A DNA stretch of 32,000 nt from Erysipelothrix inopinata (lineage in GTDB: Bacteria; Bacillota_I; Bacilli_A; Erysipelotrichales; Erysipelotrichaceae), in the NCBI RefSeq assembly GCF_014396165.1, contig NZ_CP060715.1, positions 2,010,001-2,042,000 on the forward strand, written 5' to 3'. Shown piece by piece: positions 3,001 to 29,770 of this stretch. The notes beneath the pieces are model-generated. The model searched no databases. It was not told the origin of the DNA and saw only the letters and a program-made list of their open reading frames with translations. Every line of letters begins with the position of its first letter. The first letter of the stretch is position 1. The translations under genes and the position numbers were made by a program.

Positions 3001-5107
3001 ATCAAGTATTTGAATTTTTGACTTAGGATTGACTGGCAATGCTTCTACCGTAAGTTTACTTGTTCCTTGAGGCACCAGTAAGGAATATTCGATAACATCT
3101 GACTTAAACTCACGATGTAATGCTCCTTCATGAACATACAACGTTTTTAAATCCGTATTGCTTGATTGGTCACGAACAACCTCAATAGTGTAGGTTGCTG
3201 GTGTCCCATCTTCAGCACGTGTTTTAATCTCGATGCTATTCGAACCAAGTTTAAGTTCATGCTTTCCATTACCGCTCATTACCGTAGATTGAATCATTGG
3301 TTCTGTTACAAACTCAATCATATCAATCTCATTGTTTACATTGAGTGTGTATTTATAGGTATCAGGATTAAACTCAGGTTCCATTGTACCTTCAGGTTTC
3401 GTCATGATTGATTTCAATCGTGCATCCACATTGGGTTTCATAGTTATATTCACGCTGTACGTTTCAATACGACCACTTTCCGCAGTTGCTAGAATTTCAA
3501 CTCGGTTTACACCCGTTAATAATTCAATCCCTTGGTGCTTAGAAACTTCAGTAAGTGGATGCTTTGTTTCTGTTATAAGATTCAATCGTTCTTCCGTATA
3601 AGGAATTGTGATATTGTACTCCAAAGTTTCCGGATTAAAATCTTCGATTTCAAAGAGATTGGAGGTAATACTTGTAAGTTCATTGTTATCAGAGATTGCT
3701 TTATTGACTGTGAAAACGTATTGATTTACGTTTCCGTGATCAGCAGTAACACGAACATTAATGGTATTCTTTCCGCCTCGAAGTCTGACGGTATTTCCTG
3801 ATGTTGTATACGTTGCTAATTCATTAGCTAACTCAATCTTAAGATCTGGATTAATCACATCATCTGCGACTTCAAATGTTTGTTTTAACACATCTGGATC
3901 GAATGGATCCATTTCTTTACCACCGATAGAGAGAGATTTGATCTTCGCATTTTTGGATTTGCTACGATTGATTTGAATGCGATAACTTCCTTTTGTACCG
4001 TCTTGAGCTTGGGTATTAATGACGAATTGATTGGATCCGACTTCTAATTTTTTAACACCCAGTCCTTCAACTGATGTTGCATCATTATCGACAACTCCCA
4101 CAAGTTCAACTTCATCAATTTCATTCTCGACGTTCACAACATAATCGTTTAATACCTTTTGGTAATTTGGTGATAATGGTAAAGCCTCATCTTTATGAAG
4201 AATTTCAAGAGATTTTAAGAAGACATTCGAACTTTCTTCGCGATATATATTTAATGTGTAGTTTTTTACCAGACCATTTTCTGCAGTTACTTCATAGGTC
4301 AAGGTATTCATACCTAACTCGAGCTCTGCTGTTTCAGCTTTCACATCGATGACTGCATTAGGATCCATGGTTTCAGCATGAATATCTAAGTCAGATACTT
4401 TCTCGAATTCATGCGGAACGGATACATAATATTCAGTAATATCAGGATTAAATTCTAAGTCTCGTTCTGGTTTCAACATCGTCAAGGATTCCAAGTCCGC
4501 ATTTCCAGTCATATCTCGATTGATTTCAAAGGAGTATGCATGGAAGCTCTCGCCATCTTCACTCATTACATCAATATAGTAATGATTATCGTAACCCGGT
4601 TGTAATTCAATGACACCTTCACCAGTCACAATTTGATAGGCATGAGATTTGATAACTGAGAATTCTAACGAACGAATGCGTGATGGAACTGTCATGCTAT
4701 AGACAACACCCTGAGTTCCAAAATCTTGATTAACATCAAATTTCGGTGATAACTTACAGTAATCATCAGATGCTGAGCAAAGTGAAGGAATCAATCCATT
4801 AATAAGAATATTTTCCGGCATTGATTCTTTTGAAGCAGGGCGATTAACTTTAAGTGTATAAGTTTTAACATCACCATTTTCTGCAGTAACCAGTAAATCA
4901 AATTTCTGATTGCCTGCTGGAATATCATATTTACCATTACCAACGATAGTTGCATGAGGATCCATAGCAACACCTTTGATATTTAGCTCTGTCGTATCTG
5001 CATCCAGATCAACAGTATATTCTGTTTGTTTAAGATCAAACTCTGGAGTTAGTTTACCAGAACTGATTTCAATTTTGGATAAGTGATTATCTTCAGATGC
5101 TTTTCTC
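1..5107 (-). other. Array of about 19 cadherin-like beta-sandwich repeats (about 85-90 aa each, divergent at DNA level); the last is cut by the window edge
   Basis: Each unit starts with a motif like (S/D)xNxxL(K/S)xLx(V/I)..G.L.P.F....EY.(V/L) and ends ..G.N.I.I.VTAE(N/D)G..K.YT(I/L).(V/I)NR. Examples are DNHLSKIEISSGKLTPEFDLKQTEYTVDL...TAENGDVKTYTLKVNR and SDNTNLKELSVDGNQFETFKNDQTSYELNL...TAENGTVKTFTFIVNR. Three more units lie at 5861-6671, and two follow each of glycine-rich copies 1-3. Confidence 0.65.
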
Positions 5108-8100
5108 AATGCGGTAATGCGCACATAACCATTTCCTGAGTTTCCTACTGTATAACCACTGTCTTTACCTGGTATTCTTTCAAGCCCAGATTTTAGTTCT
5201 GTTTCACTGAGATAATATTTCTTATCGACAGTATATCCTTTAGGTTTGTGGGAGGTTTCAGTTAATACGTAACCCGATCCACCACCGCCACCGCGATCAT
5301 CATCAGCTGAGTAGTCAGGATTTACACCACCGCCGCCGTACCAGCCACCACCACCGGCGCCACCACGACCATTGTTAGCATAAACACCGCGACCTCCAAG
5401 ACCAAATTCGCCAAAGAGACCGGCTGCTGTTTGGGACCCACCTTGACCACCTGTACCATAATTTTCTGATCGTGATTGACCATAGTTTCCACCACCAGCG
5501 CCACCTTGTTTATTGGATGCCCCGACAGAACCACCACCACCAGCTACAAGAATACGATGGTACAGTGTTTCACCTGCGACACGAATATCAGAGGCACCAC
5601 CACCATAGACACCATTACTTGCTGAGGCACCACCACCGTTATAACCTCGGGATATTGAATTACCAAATCCCCCAACGTTAATTGTGAGCTCCTCACCTTG
5701 CTTTAAGTGAACGAGGCCATTTGCATAGCCACCTTTACCACCTGATTGTGATCCACGGTTTCCCCCTTCAGCACCCCAGGCTTCAAGTTGGTAATTTCCT
5801 GTATACGGTGCAACAAAAGTTTCACTCTTGCCTTTATAGACATACTCATAAATTTTATCTTCACTACCTTCTCCTGAATCCGATCGATTCACATTGATAA
5901 GATAGACTTGTTTTCCTACATGTGGTTCATCAACTGTTACCGTTATTTTATTTTTACCCGGTCTAAGATAACCATTACCACTGACATTAATTGTTGCTTC
6001 ATGGTCATATGCCACAGCATCGACGTTTATGGAAACCATTCCCATAGGAATATCGACATCATAATCAAAGGTTTCTGGTTCAAACTCAAAATTCACATCT
6101 GTGAGTTTCAATGACTTAAGAAGATTTGTATCTTCTATTCTCGGAGTAATCGTATAAGCATCCGATTCATTTCCCGTTTCAGATGTAATTCGAATTGAAA
6201 CCGGTTTGTTGTTTTCAAACTCAACATTTCCGAGTCCTTCAATGACTTGACCTGGTTTGTTTTTTATCCCATCAATAAGCGCATTTCGATCTTGCTTATA
6301 ATCAAGTTCAATTTCATAATTCATTGTTTTCGAGTCAAAATTATTGATTGATTTTTCATTAATACTTAAATTCTTCAGACTTGTATCTTTAGATGCTTCG
6401 CGATAGATATTCAGTTTATAAATACCCATGGTTCCATCTTGAGCAATGACTGGAAGTTCCACAACGGTTGTTCCTGGCATAATTGTAAGGACTTTATCTT
6501 TATCCCATTGCAACTCCGCATTGTGTTCCGTTACGTCACCTTTGATGACTAATTCATACTGTTCGGTGTCCATAACAACATTATATTCATGTTGGTTCGG
6601 ACTGAACGGTTTATCCATGGTTCCAGAACTTAGTTCTAAAGACTTTAATGTTGCGTCAGATGAATACAGGTTAAGGATTGAAATACGGACAGCACCGTCA
6701 CCCTCTTTACCTGTAATTGTAAATCCCTCAGGGCCTGGCATGCTAAAACTTCCAGCACCTAAAACAGTATTCGTCATTTGGTACTTATTAGAAGGTGCAT
6801 AATTTGTTGGTTTGTATGATTTATCGGTGAATGCATAACTTGATCCGCCACCGCCGCCGTCACCATAATAATCACTGCGTTCGTTACGGTTTCCACCACC
6901 GCCATACCAACCACCGCCACCGCCACCGGCAGTTGCACGATATTGATTGCTATCATAGGTTCCGGATCCACCGTTACCAAATGCACCACTACTTGCTCCA
7001 CCACTGCTTTGGGTTGCACCTTTTCCATAGTTTCTACCAGATGCATTTTGTCCTTCGGTGCCACCACCGTCAGCACCGGCACCACTCTTACCTGCCGCAC
7101 CACCACCAGCTGCAACTAGAATACGATTATATACGCTCGTACCACCGACACGAATATCTGTAGCACCACCGCCTCGTTGGCTTCCATTATAACTTGTACC
7201 ACCGCCATTATAACCACTATTAACTTCACCATCACCACCAACAGTGATATTCAAGATTTCGCCCTTCATCAGGTAAATATCACCTGCAGCATAGGCACCT
7301 TTACCACCTTTTACGGACTCAACACGACCTCCTTGAGCACCCCATGTCTCAAGACGATACATTCCCGTGTAAGGAACGGTGAATTGCTCCATTTTTCGAG
7401 TGTATCCAAATGACATATCTCTTTGTCGATGCGCTTTGATGATATATACAGAATCTTCAATACCTTCACGAGAAACAGTCACGCGAATTGTATTATCTCC
7501 AGGTAAGAGTTCTTCATTTGAAGCACCTTCTACCTTTACTTTCGCATCTTCATCATAAGTCGTTGCAATAATATTCAAGCCACCATATACATAGGACTTC
7601 ATGTCATATTCATATTTATTACTATCAAATATCGAAGAGAATGCATTCGTATACTCATCCACCTTCAAATCATAAAGCTGTGTACTTTTTTCTCGCTTGA
7701 AGTTAATTTTATAATCTTGTTTAACTTTTTTATCAGCAGAGATTACAGAAATAGTTTGCGACGTATTATGGTAGTTATTTTTTACTTTTCCAGTTCCAGC
7801 AATAACTTGACCTGAATGACGTCTATCTACAGTGATTTCATCTTCTTGACGATAATCACCTGGAATAACTATCGTATATTCATATTTATTTGGATCAAAT
7901 CCTTCAATAATTTTTCCATTAATACGAATCGCATCAAGATCTGCTGTATTTTCAGTATTTTTACCAAAATACGTAATTCGAGCATATCCATGTTCTGCAT
8001 GACCAATTTCTCGAATTCCATCAATCCCGAAAAAACTTTCGTTTCCTTGCATAAGTTGGGCTTGAGTCATCTCATATTTACTATCAGGAGCATAATTACC

Positions 8101-11100
8101 AGGTCGGTATGATTGCGGAATGGTAATACCATTCTCAACACGTTTTCCAGTTAAAACGTATCCAGAACCACCGCCACCACCGTAGCCATAGCTGTTACTA
8201 CGTTCGTTACGGTTTCCACCTCCGCCGTACCAGCCACCACCGCCACCACCGGCGACAGCATTATAACTATTACTATCATAGGTTCCACCGCCACCAGTTC
8301 CAAAAGATCCATTGAAATATCCATAGCTATTTTGGGTTGCACCTTTACCATATCCAGAGTTTCCAGATGCATCAACACCGTTGGTTCCACCACCGGCACC
8401 ACCATGACCTGTTTGACCTGCAGCACCACCGCCACCAGCAACTAAAATACGATGATATAAACTCGAGCCGCCAATTCGGAAATCAGTTGCCCCGCCACCA
8501 CGTTGGCTTCCATTGTAGCTGGATCCTCCACCATTGTAACCACGACCATTATTATAATCACCAAAGCCTCCAACTGTTACAGTGATTTCTTCACCTTTTT
8601 GTAGTGTGATGTGTCCAGAAGTATAACCGCCTTTACCACCATTGTAAGTACCTAAAGAACCTCCTTGTGCACCCCAGGCTTCTAACTGATATTCACCATC
8701 GTAAGGCGCAATAAATACCTGACTCTTGGATTTAAAATCAAAGTCGATGCTTCTCATCTTAATAACCTTAATTCTATATTCATTGTCTTCAATTCCATCA
8801 TTTGATACATTTACGATAATGATGTCATTATCTTTATCATCTTTTTGATATATAGTTGTAACCACTGCATTTATATCAAACGTTTGATACTCAACTTCAA
8901 CTTTTTCATTCTTAAAACTTTCAACTGTATACTCATTTTTAGTAAATTCAAAAGCTTCATCATCTTTATATACATGATTAGTTACTTTTAAATCATAAAG
9001 TTTGTTGCTTGGTTCACGCTCAAAATTCAAGGTATAAACCTTGTTTGTTTTTCCATCGGCAGAGAAGACCGTTAATTTTTGCACTTGATTATGATATTCA
9101 AATTCTACTTTCCCAGTACCAGCTACTACCTGTCCCGAGTGACGAAGATCTACAGTAATTTCATCCTCTTGACGATGTTCTCCTGGAATCTTAATGGTAT
9201 ATTCATATTTATTTGGGTCGAATCCCTCAATGATTTTTCCATTAATACGAATCGCATCGAGATCTGCTGTATTTTCAGTATTTTTACCAAAATACGTAAT
9301 TCGAGCATATCCATGTTCTGCATGTCCAATTTCTCGCGTTCCATCAATACCGAAGAAACTCTCATTACCGTTTGCAAGATATTCCTTCTTCATTTCATAC
9401 TTAGAATTTGGTACATAATTTCCAGGACGGTATGATTGAGGAATGGTAATGCCATTCTCAACACGTTTTCCAGTTAAAACGTATCCCGATCCACCGCCAC
9501 CACCGTAGCCATAGCTGTTGCTGCGTTCATTACGGTTTCCACCGCCTCCGAACCAGCCACCACCGCCACCACCGGCGACAGAATTATAACTATTACTATC
9601 ATAGGTTCCACCGCCACCAGTTCCAAAAGATCCATTGAAATATCCATAGCTATTTTGGGTTGCACCTTTACCATATCCAGAGTTTCCTGTTGCATCGACA
9701 CCGTTGGTTCCACCACCGGCACCACCATGACCTGTTTGACCAGCCGCACCACCGCCACCGGCTACTAAAATACGATTATAAATACCGGTTCCACCAACGC
9801 GAAAATCTGTAGCACCACCGCCACGTTGGCTTCCATTGTAACTGGATCCACCACCATTGTAACCACGACCATTATTATAATCGCCAAAGCCTCCGACTGT
9901 TACAGTGATTTCTTCACCTTTTTGTAGTGTAATATGTCCAGAAGTATAACCGCCTTTACCACCATTATATGTACCTAAAGAACCTCCTTGCGCTCCCCAT
10001 GCTTCAAGTTTATATTCACCATCATATGGCGCAATAAAGATTTGACTCTTTGATTGGAATTCAAAATCAAGACTTCGATGTTTGGTAACTTCGATTTCAT
10101 ATTCAAAGGGATCTATACCATCCCTTTGGACGCTTAAAGTAATGAGTTCCTTATTGTCGCTTAGTGGTTCGCGTACGACAGAGCCCACAGCATCCTTATC
10201 GAAAGTCATATAGCTTACTGAAACTTCTTCATCCAAAAAGCTATCGACAAAATATTTTTTCACGTTTGGATCGAAAGAAATATTATCTTTGAACGTATGA
10301 TTATCTGCCTTTAGATTGAAAAGTTTGTTGCTAGGTTCTCGTTCAAAATTCAAGGTATAGACCTTGCTCGTTTTTCCATCTGCAGAAAAGACATTAATCT
10401 TTTGAACTAAATTATGGTATTCAAAATTAACTTTGCCTGTTCCGACGATAACCTGATCTACATGACGTCGGTCTACTGTGATTTCATCTTCTTGAGAGTA
10501 TTCTCCAGGGATTTTTATTGTATATTCTAATTGTTTGGGATCAAATCCTTGAATGATATTTCCATTAATTCGAATGCCGTCAATATCCGCCGAATTTTCA
10601 TTATCTTTACCATAGTATGTAATACGCGCATGTCCATGCGATTCATGACCAATTTCACGTACGCCATCGATTCCAAAAAAACTTTCATTTCCATGTGACA
10701 ATTGCGCTTTATTCATTTCATACTTACTCTCTGGAGCATAATTACCAGGTCGGTAAGATGGGGCAATGGTTATACCGTTCTCAACACGGCTTCCAGTTAA
10801 AACATATCCAGAACCACCGCCTCCACCGTAACCATAACTGTTGCTACGCTCATTTCGGTTTCCACCACCGCCATACCAGCCACCACCGCCACCGCCGGCA
10901 ACCGCATTATAGCTATTACTATCATAGGTCCCACCGCCACCAGTTGCGAATCCACCATTAAAATATCCATAACTACTTTGAGTGGCACCCTTTCCATATC
11001 CAGAGTTTCCTGATGCATCGAGTCCCTCTAGTCCACCACCAGCTCCACCATGTCCTGTTTTCCCCGCAGCACCACCACCGCCGGCAACTAAGATACGGTT

Positions 11101-11519
11101 ATAAATCGAAGTTCCGCCAACACGAAAATCCGTGGCACCACCACCACGTTGACTTCCATTATAGCTAGAACCACCACCATTGTAGCCGCGACCACCATTG
11201 TAGTCGCCATCACCACCGACAGTAATCGTCAGTTCTTCACCTTTCTTAAGGTAGATTTCTCCGGAAGCAAAGCCCCCTTTACCTCCGCGATAATCGCCCA
11301 AGGATCCTCCTTGAGCACCCCAAGACTCTAGTAGATACAGTCCGTCCTTTTCAACATTGAAAGTGACAGGTTTACCTGTATACTCGAAGTTATGAACTTC
11401 GGGTTGTTCACTCGACACTTTTGTTTTCGTATCATTCGCAAAAATCTGATACGACGACAAAAACACTACAAAAAAGAGTAGTCCGAGCCCCCAGCACGAG
11501 AAACTTTTTTAATATTCAT
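1..11519 (-). CDS. Giant secreted/surface repeat protein. It holds five ALK/LTK-like glycine-rich domains and about 28 cadherin-like beta-sandwich repeats. It is 3'-partial (continues beyond position 1). The 5' end is frame-disrupted: ATG at 11517-11519, body frame open from 11508.
   Basis: I split the + strand into triplets from position 1. No tta/cta/tca (reverse-complement stops) occurs until tta at 11509-11511. I read the whole frame through and re-verified it triplet by triplet at 1-540, 4681-4860, 5101-5280, 7021-7140, 7381-7500, 8701-8820, 10081-10140 and 11401-11511. All minus-strand track ORFs in this region are in another frame, as expected for one ORF with no in-window stop. The translation begins ..SFSCWGLGLLFFVVFLSSYQIFANDTKTKVSSEQPEVHNFEYTGKPVTFNVEKDGLYLLESWGAQGGSLGDYRGGKGGFASGEIYLKKGEELTITVGG.. 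and ends at the window edge in a cadherin-like repeat. An ATG with an upstream AAGAGGGG Shine-Dalgarno sequence sits at 11517-11519 but is offset by one base from the body frame. Confidence 0.85.
5108..5860 (-). other. Glycine-rich domain copy 5 (most diverged)
   Basis: The translation reads YEYVYKGKSETFVAPYTGNYQLEAWGAEGGNRGSQSGGKGGYANGLVHLKQGEELTINVGG..GYNGGGASASNGVYGGGASDIRVAGETLYHRILVAGGGGSVG..GRGGAGGGGWYGGGGVNPDYSADDDRGGGGGSGYVL..GNSGNGYVRITAL. Confidence 0.65.
6672..7420 (-). other. Glycine-rich domain copy 4 (diverged)
   Basis: The translation reads FGYTRKMEQFTVPYTGMYRLETWGAQGGRVESVKGGKGAYAAGDIYLMKGEILNITVGG..QRGGGATDIRVGGTSVYNRILVAAGGGAAGKSGAGADGGG..TAGGGGGGWYGGGGNRNERS..GDGGGGGSSYAF..GKEGDGAVRISIL. 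The reverse complement of 7021-7140 was verified codon by codon. Confidence 0.7.
7962..8750 (-). other. Glycine-rich domain copy 3
   Basis: The translation reads FDFKSKSQVFIAPYDGEYQLEAWGAQGGSLGTYNGGKGGYTSGHITLQKGEEITVTVGG..QRGGGATDFRIGGSSLYHRILVAGGGGAAG..GGGGGGWYGGGGNRNERS..GHAEHGYARITYFG. It is nearly identical to copy 2. Confidence 0.7.
9285..10075 (-). other. Glycine-rich domain copy 2
   Basis: The translation reads FEFQSKSQIFIAPYDGEYKLEAWGAQGGSLGTYNGGKGGYTSGHITLQKGEEITVTVGG..QRGGGATDFRVGGTGIYNRILVAGGGGAAGQTGHGGAGGG..GGGGGGWFGGGGNRNERS..GHAEHGYARITYFG. Confidence 0.7.
10610..11400 (-). other. Glycine-rich domain copy 1 (ALK/LTK GRD-like, PF12810-like)
   Basis: The translation reads FEYTGKPVTFNVEKDGLYLLESWGAQGGS..GGKGGFASGEIYLKKGEELTITVGG..GYNGGGSSYNGSQRGGGATDFRVGGTSIYNRILVAGGGGAAG..AVAGGGGGGWYGGGGNRNERS..YGGGGGSGYVL..GHESHGHARITYYG. 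Confidence 0.7.
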
Positions 11520-11550
11520 TTTAGTAAATCTTCCCCTCTTAAGCACAATT

Positions 11551-11556
11551 ATTATA
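11551..11556 (-). promoter_or_regulatory. Candidate -10 box (TATAAT) for the giant gene; no convincing -35
   Basis: The minus-strand sequence reads ..ACAGCTTATAATAATTGTGCTTAAGAGGGGAAGATTTACTAAAATG. It has a perfect TATAAT, a poor -35 (ATAAGG) and an AT-rich upstream region. It lies downstream of the two rpsO terminators. Confidence 0.35.
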
Positions 11557-11644
11557 AGCTGTAATAATATCGACCTTATATTACAACAATTAAGCGTTTT
11601 TGTGTGGAATACTTGTGGATTTTAGCCATAAACGGGCAAAATAC

Positions 11645-11671
11645 AAAAAAGAGTAGTAAAATATACTACTC
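11645..11671 (-). terminator. Rho-independent terminator (second of two after rpsO)
   Basis: On the minus strand, GAGTAGTA-TATTT-TACTACTC forms an 8-bp stem followed by TTTTTTG. Confidence 0.7.
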
Positions 11672-11689
11672 CTTGATCTCTGAGCGAAC

Positions 11690-11712
11690 AAAAAAAGGAG
11701 CCGAAGCTCCTT
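11690..11712 (-). terminator. Rho-independent terminator immediately after rpsO
   Basis: On the minus strand, AAGGAGC-TTCG-GCTCCTT is followed by TTTTTTTG, 8 nt past the rpsO stop. Confidence 0.8.
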
Positions 11713-11719
11713 AGTAAGA

Positions 11720-11986
11720 TTATTTTCTTAATCCTAGTTTTGTGATTAATTCACGGTAACGGTTGATGTCTTCGTTACGTAAGTAAGTTAATAGGTTACG
11801 ACGACGTCCAACTTTTTTAAGAAGTCCACGGTTTGAATGGTGGTCTTTCTTGTGTACTTTCATATGTTCTGTTAACATATTGATTTCTGCTGTAAGAACT
11901 GCTACTTGAACTTCTACTGAACCAGTATCGTTTTCTGTACGAGCATATTCTTTCATGATTGCTTGTTTTTCATTTTTAGATAACAT
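11720..11986 (-). CDS. rpsO: 30S ribosomal protein S15
   Basis: This is an 88-aa track ORF ([56 protein letters not shown]..). It has the typical S15 sequence and an AGGAGG Shine-Dalgarno sequence upstream. Confidence 0.95.
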
Positions 11987-13660: not shown

Positions 13661-13701
13661 AAAAGACACATCCTCTTTAAATCAGAGAATGTGTCTTTTT
13701 T
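13661..13701. terminator. Bidirectional hairpin terminator between convergent genes
   Basis: AAAAGACACATCCTCT..AGAGAATGTGTCTTTTTT carries an A-run on one side and a T-run on the other. It overlaps the hemW stop codon. Confidence 0.7.
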
Positions 13702-28821: not shown

Positions 28822-29770
28822 TTAATAATTAAACATTAATGTTGATAAATAACGTTCTCCAGTATCAGGAAGAATAACTACAATGTTCTTACCTTTGTTC
28901 TCAGGACGTTTCGCAAGCTCAATTGCAGCAAACTGCAGCTCCTGAAGAAATACCTACAAGAAGTCCTTCTTTGCGTGCAATATTACGACCTGTTTCAAAT
29001 GCATCTTGATCTGAAACACGGATAATTTCATCAATTAATGATTCATCTAGAATTGAAGGAATAAATCCTGCACCAATACCCTGAATTTTATGAGGTCCAG
29101 GTTTTTCTCCTGAAAGAATTGCGGATGTTTCTGGTTCTACTGCAACCACTTTGATATTTGGGTTTTGTTCTTTTAAATATGAACCGGTTCCTGTTAGTGT
29201 ACCACCTGTTCCGACACCTGATACAAGAATATCGACAGTACCTTCAGTATCACGATAAATTTCAGGTCCGGTTGTATTGTAGTGCATCTTAACATTGGCT
29301 GTGTTATCAAATTGTGATGGAATAAATGAATTTTCAAAAGATTCAGCAAGTTCATTGGCTTTCGCAATTGCACCTTTCATTCCAGTACTTCCATCTGTTA
29401 GAACAAGTTCAGCACCGTATGCCTTTAATAAGTTACGACGCTCTACGCTCATTGTTTCTGGCATTGTAAGAATGACACGCAATCCCATTGATGCACCAAT
29501 CGAAGCAAGACCAATTCCTGTATTTCCACTGGTTGGTTCAATAATAACTGTTTCATCATTGATTAAGCCTTCTTTTTTAGCTTGTGATAACATTGCGAAT
29601 GCAATACGGTCTTTAACACTTCCACCAGGATTAAAGAATTCAACTTTCGCTAAGATATTTGCTTGGACATCGTATTCTTTTTCAATATTCTTTAAAGATA
29701 CGAGTGGTGTATTTCCGATTAATTCTGTGAGTTCATTATAAATTTTCATAGTAACCTTGTTATCCTCCAT
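28822..29770 (-). pseudogene. cysK: Cysteine synthase A (O-acetylserine sulfhydrylase) with a +1-nt frameshift about 31 codons from the 3' end. The track ORF 28919..29770 is the truncated form.
   Basis: The translation has the PLP-lysine motif NPGGSVKDRIA and the motifs TSGNTGIGLA, GVGTGGTLTG and GISSGAA. After GISSGAAV the frame hits TGA (..AVCCN*). Removing one T from the TTT at 28930-28932 restores ..[39 protein letters not shown], the canonical CysK C-terminus. The span 28822-29770 is 949 nt, which is 3n+1. Confidence 0.85.

Follow-up and report, generated by a model that had tools for sequence, protein, structure and literature searches.

A G missing from a conserved G6 tract breaks the signal peptide of a giant Erysipelothrix surface-protein gene and is probably a consensus error

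The gene for a giant surface protein is broken near its start in the window, as we call the whole 32,000-nt stretch of Erysipelothrix inopinata DNA analysed here. The frame break is genuinely present in the sequence, and comparison with relatives shows that the lesion is a single G lost from a conserved run of six (G6), a loss private to the window. We consider it probable, at roughly 70%, that the missing G is an error in the consensus or assembly of this genome, a technical cause that we infer from the comparison with related sequences and not from raw data. On this view the gene is intact and unremarkable in the lineage, coding for a giant Sec-exported surface protein of ~5,500 aa with GGG GGG as codons 10-11. 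The window is one G short, which leaves its ATG and the opening half of its signal peptide in a different frame from what follows, and the cause would be an under-called homopolymer together with one other small deletion in the consensus.

Read on the minus strand, the ATG of the giant gene (11519-11517) is followed by AAT ATT AAA AAA GTT TCT CGT GCT GGG GGC TCG GAC TAC TCT TTT TTG TAG and this reading stops after 17 codons, at 11468-11466, as a preliminary description of the same DNA had stated. The body of the ORF sits in a different frame, from 11508 down to 1 (3,836 codons in the window, running off at position 1), and a TAA at 11511-11509 closes it just upstream; translation bore out both of these earlier claims. 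An alternative upstream start in the body frame was considered and discarded, the frame being shut by this TAA and by another one. The earliest start codon in the body frame is a GTG at 11466-11464, past most of the hydrophobic core, and we found no body-frame start that preserves the signal peptide in the sequence as given. It was correct, then, that as sequenced the giant protein has no export signal, since the GTG comes too late. The TAG of the 17-codon ORF overlaps this GTG (TAGTG, 11464-11468, minus). Two homopolymers lie in the affected segment, both at the positions originally described (minus strand): an A6 run at 11505-11510, corresponding to codons 4-5 (Lys-Lys), and a G5 run at 11488-11492, which is the remnant of the conserved G6 of codons 10-11 (GGG GGG, Gly-Gly). 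Chance is not at issue; at the break, the window departs by one base from 13 independent relatives.

The same locus was found in relatives by exact-sequence look-up of the RpsO protein of the window and of the neighbouring 151-aa protein. We obtained 13 independent records of the rpsO-linked locus, six of them NCBI MAGs (GCA_036641495.1, GCA_030149845.1, GCA_036638835.1, GCA_965139835.1, GCA_036639515.1 and GCA_036637915.1) and seven Logan assemblies (SRR11123321, ERR15402133, SRR31477554, SRR26857149, SRR33281773, SRR25820359 and ERR11525536). They form two clades, with ~83-85% and ~91-100% identity to the window. Both A6 and G6 are found in 13 of 13, the window alone having G5, and every one of the relatives encodes MNIKKVSRAGGLGLLFFVVFLSS[Y/F]QIFA, continued by NDT, in frame with a protein of ~5,500 aa. 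The DNA alignment with the MAG that carries the nearest named protein (P0001) likewise has G6 there versus G5 in the window and A6 in both, and the gap was placed at window position 11492 against L003, L006, L017, L018, L020 and L042. Two repairs had been put forward in the preliminary description, and both had been translated correctly. The extra G is exactly the version carried by the 13 relatives (MNIKKVSRAGGLGLL...). The extra A (A7) is not ancestral and is ruled out as the repair, every relative having A6. Comparing the locus in related genomes, a check that had been proposed from the start, thus identified the G tract as the site of the lesion. One of the Logan assemblies, SRR11123321, has an apparent disruption of its own in the giant gene (L043 12580-12600, homologous to window ~6390), where the gene is called as 1,707 + 3,767 aa and the stop is made by four substitutions and a 1-bp deletion clustered within 12 nt.

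By the alignments, ATG 11519 is the start of the correct gene model, whose N-terminus is MNIKKVSRAGGLGLLFFVVFLSSYQIFA followed by NDT. The signal peptide is encoded at 11437-11519 (minus), in one frame in the restored form shared with the relatives and in two frames in the window. We inspected the n-, h- and c-regions for a positive n-region, an h-region of ~10-15 hydrophobic residues, a small residue at -1 and a tolerated aliphatic one at -3. The restored N-terminus has all the features of a Sec-type (signal peptidase I) signal peptide, which agrees with the first reading of the form with the extra G: the n-region is MNIKKVSR with three positive charges, the h-region AGGLGLLFFVVFLSS and the c-region YQIFA, next to N, so that by this inspection cleavage is predicted after Ala, between 11437 and 11436. 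Gene callers chose the homologous ATG in 10 of the 11 related records with a gene table, the exception being ERR15402133, where the start was called 78 nt upstream. In relatives this ATG lies 201-203 nt after rpsO, and in the window a purine-rich, Shine-Dalgarno-like stretch, AAGAGGGGAA, identical in all relatives, is found at 11531-11540 (minus), 11 nt upstream of it.

Full-length orthologues of the protein have 5,499-5,501 aa. Five units of ~441 aa (a repeat period of 1,323 nt, window 5000-11500, minus) are each made of one ALK_LTK_GRD glycine-rich domain plus cadherin-like beta-sandwich modules, and downstream of them comes a long cadherin-like/Big_2 tail. The body matched PF12810 in Pfam with an E value of 1.9e-106 and PF12733 weakly, and the complete orthologues also match Big_2 and, weakly, a dockerin-like family. 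The protein shares with the giant Gram-positive surface proteins that have ALK/LTK-type glycine-rich domains (PF12810) a Sec signal peptide, five PF12810 domains, cadherin-like beta-sandwich repeats, Big_2 and the weak dockerin-like match, and nothing unusual was established for it with respect to this class. The many PF12810 matches in the protein database include proteins of 590-840 aa, at least one of them attributed to a Herelleviridae phage. The nearest named protein, P0001 (77% identity), comes from a MAG and bears the name 'glycine rich domain-containing protein, partial [Erysipelothrix sp.]'; its N-terminus, MNIKKVSRAGGLGLLFFVVFLSSFQIFANDT, is the version with the extra G. P0001 is partial (426 aa) owing to a 10-N scaffold gap and not to a frameshift. 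In several of the related MAGs genes are split by 10-N gaps of this kind (L008 1518-1527; L001 11270-11279): in GCA_036639515.1 it is the gene of a NAD-binding dehydrogenase, in GCA_036641495.1 the giant gene itself. When the N-terminal 483 aa were compared with GTDB-representative genomes, the sole match was a distant locus in a Bacilli MAG, at 29% identity.

The giant gene comes after rpsO (11720-11986), within a housekeeping block that contains lepA, a hemN-like gene, fmt, holA, a comEC-like gene, greA, alaS and others. Past rpsO lie two tandem terminator-like hairpins (11648-11712, minus), and these suggest that transcription of the giant gene begins separately, in 11530-11647. At 11556-11551 there is a TATAAT, a perfect -10 hexamer read by eye; no good -35 was found for it. 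A block of 150 nt comprising the promoter region, the 5' UTR and the signal peptide (11455-11603) is 98% identical to L041, which belongs to the clade that is ~85% identical overall, while in the body of the giant gene, a few hundred bases downstream of this block, identity to the same sequence falls to 55-85%. This pattern in the alignments points either to strong constraint or to the 5' region having been exchanged recently along with rpsO. From rpsO to the signal peptide conservation is 98-100%, and the sole strongly divergent piece (62%) is the spacer after the first hairpin with the 5' arm of the second.

What the missing G amounts to is best judged from sequences otherwise identical to the window. 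GCA_965139835.1 (L006/L042), compared with window 18986-4721 over 14,267 nt, had 0 mismatches, and its only difference is the extra G. The Logan contig ERR14335473_18 (L023), compared with window 32000-12498 (19.5 kb), had again 0 mismatches and one 2-bp gap: the window is without a TA between 28933 and 28932 (GCTGCAG[TA]TTTGC) that is present in ERR14335473 and in all other relatives. This deletion, 17 kb from the G tract, cuts a PALP-family (cysteine-synthase-like) gene (28919-29770, minus) to 283 aa and takes off the conserved C-terminal 37 residues of its product. Of nine related records listed, eight have the gene at 316 aa; in the 85%-identity clade it is called at 309 aa. An exact look-up of the truncated 283-aa product in a collection of 153 billion genes found no assembly that has it. 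In the 27.3 kb jointly covered by these two base-identical assemblies (the comparison with identical sequences spans window 4721-32000) the window has 0 private substitutions and two private deletions, and both deletions are frameshifts in conserved genes. The many A/T runs of 6-8 in the window all agree with the identical relatives. An intact G6 would stand alone in the region, where no other G/C run reaches 6. The Logan contigs break off at window 9853-9937 solely on account of exact repeats of 31 nt or more.

Two further clues were followed and set aside. The TA deletion abuts a CTGCAG, so that a methylation motif could be thought of; there are 12 such sites in the window, and all nine others in the compared stretch are clean, so that the proximity is probably a coincidence. 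The contiguity of the window is of no use as evidence of long reads either, its longest exact repeat being only 105 nt.

Natural variation in the lineage provides a reference for these numbers. Against strains 97-99.8% identical, the window has 28-442 substitutions and 0-2 indels per comparison: 28 substitutions and 0 natural indels over 12.4 kb with L030, 97 and 0 over 10.5 kb with L032, and 442 and two over 19.5 kb with L025. The natural rate is therefore ~1 indel per 100-300 substitutions. The natural indels are of 1 bp, in A-runs located just past stop codons, at 13701 (hemN, A6 vs A7) and 18747 (holA, A8 vs A7), and at both places the base-identical relatives have the alleles of the window. 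To judge from these alignments, natural indels in the lineage avoid coding sequence, and two coding deletions with no substitution look very unlike the natural spectrum. Bacterial mutation-accumulation spectra have roughly one indel per 5-10 substitutions, and the 2:0 ratio of deletions to substitutions is unlike these as well.

A consensus or assembly error is favoured because of this 2:0 excess of coding deletions over substitutions and because the otherwise identical GCA_965139835.1, which spans the tract, has G6. A miscalled length is most to be expected at the G6 tract, since no other G/C run in the region is as long as 6. In long-read consensus sequences small deletions, mostly at homopolymers, dominate the residual error and pseudogenise genes, and the pattern of private deletions seen in the window is what reference-based correctors seek (PMC12007338; PMC6591954). 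The window resembles genomes fragmented by such under-calls in several ways. The 1-bp deletion falls in what would be the longest local homopolymer, it occurs in a single assembly, those identical to it at every other base having the tract in full, and it is accompanied by an extra small private deletion, no substitutions and the apparent pseudogenisation of a conserved gene. Small deletions exceed substitutions, two versus 0 in 27.3 kb.

Other features fit an error less well. The density of putative errors would be low (two in 27 kb), the window being otherwise very clean, with A/T runs of up to 8 correct. Whereas the G loss is in a would-be G6 run, the TA loss lies outside any homopolymer and is less typical of sequencing error. 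Besides, G6 is equally the most slippage-prone site for a genuine mutation, cultures often lose genes for giant surface proteins, and the frameshift in the gene body of SRR11123321 makes a real disruption not implausible. The homopolymer indel error in the assembly that had been among the first explanations offered is thus the one we favour, its technical origin reached by comparison.

The main rival, which we consider unlikely yet by far the strongest of the alternatives, is a real and very recent private frameshift, also among the explanations first offered. Replication slippage would have removed one G from G6 in a variant of the strain or population, and the giant protein would not be exported, the gene being a fixed OFF allele or a nascent pseudogene. 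The product started at the ATG would end at 17 codons, with at best reinitiation at GTG 11466-11464 giving a product without signal peptide, and the cysteine-synthase-like deletion would be a second real loss of function, for example after passage in rich medium. The break is unambiguous in the sequence, and G6, as the longest G/C tract of the region, would be a mutational hotspot. An assembly free of any other error against two identical relatives over 27.3 kb, a TA deletion that is not a typical homopolymer miscall, and the independent frameshift in the same gene of one relative (SRR11123321) speak in the same direction. Against a real mutation, two frameshifting deletions with 0 substitutions contrast with the natural ~1 indel per 100-300 substitutions, and two per 27 kb, when extrapolated, amount to over 100 frameshifts genome-wide. 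Moreover, the G5 and the TA-deleted alleles are both absent from every other assembly compared. An error in the consensus is preferred over a real loss on these grounds.

Slipped-strand ON/OFF variation had also been raised at first, with the caveat that the tracts are short for classical phase variation. Here the conserved G6 would be an evolved switch toggling export, ON with G6 and OFF with G5 or G7, and the genome would have been caught in the OFF state. We judge this very improbable, and give equally little credit to its milder form, in which G6, placed within the signal peptide of the 5,500-aa protein, would act as a contingency switch of low frequency and the genome would be a genuine OFF variant. 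The position is the classical one: as in the contingency loci of Neisseria, Haemophilus, Campylobacter, Helicobacter and Mycoplasma, a poly-G tract is located in the 5' coding region (codons 10-11) of a large, signal-peptide-bearing surface protein, and a 1-bp change in length turns expression or export off. The tract is conserved in both clades, and one OFF-length allele is known, that of the window. The only hint favouring a switch is the GGG GGG pair. Of the Gly codons GGG is the rarest, with a share of 4.4%, and among 149 Gly-Gly dipeptides 0.29 GGG-GGG pairs are expected and none is observed elsewhere in the ORF. The conserved G's need no special explanation, however, because the whole 150-nt block from promoter to signal peptide is 98% conserved.

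G/C tracts of contingency loci are typically roughly 7-8 or more long. The tract here, in contrast, has six G in the relatives and five in the window, so that the initial caveat was well placed. Its length is invariant, G6 in all of the 13 independent records (~83-100% identity), which come from many samples and from two clades ~15% apart, and nothing points to mixed populations. The lone variant co-occurs with an unrelated private frameshift, and a switch in the tract could not explain a private TA deletion in a housekeeping gene. No report linking Erysipelothrix with phase variation was found in the searchable literature, and a scan of JGI metagenomes for G5, G6 or G7 alleles returned no contigs at all. 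Slipped-strand variation of the antigen is therefore not supported.

Recoding, by a programmed -1 ribosomal frameshift or by transcriptional slippage at A6/G5 that would join the frame of the ATG to the body, can be set aside. If tRNA-Gly slipped by -1 on G GGG GC, exactly the wild-type ...RAGGLGL... would result, and low-level spontaneous slippage is conceivable. But -1 slippage, one of the explanations first listed, is excluded as an evolved mechanism because the relatives read through in one frame and do not share the two-frame arrangement, because there is no in-phase X_XXY_YYZ heptamer (the zero-frame codons are ATT AAA AAA GTT and GCT GGG GGC TCG, in agreement with the original remark that the A-run is not in the canonical slippery phase), and because the downstream structure is not significant (for 11545-11420 folding gave a z-score of -1.0, equalled by 34 of 200 shuffles). 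Efficient transcriptional slippage needs longer runs than A6 and G5.

If the G5 allele were real, termination-reinitiation at TAGTG could give a cytoplasmic protein without signal peptide, and if the deletions were real the case would be the ordinary one of a single strain losing a surface protein, of interest only for the biology of that strain. With an error in the consensus as the probable cause, the organism itself would make the giant protein normally. For annotation this means that neither the giant gene nor the cysteine-synthase-like gene at 28919-29770 should be taken as a pseudogene of the organism without read support.
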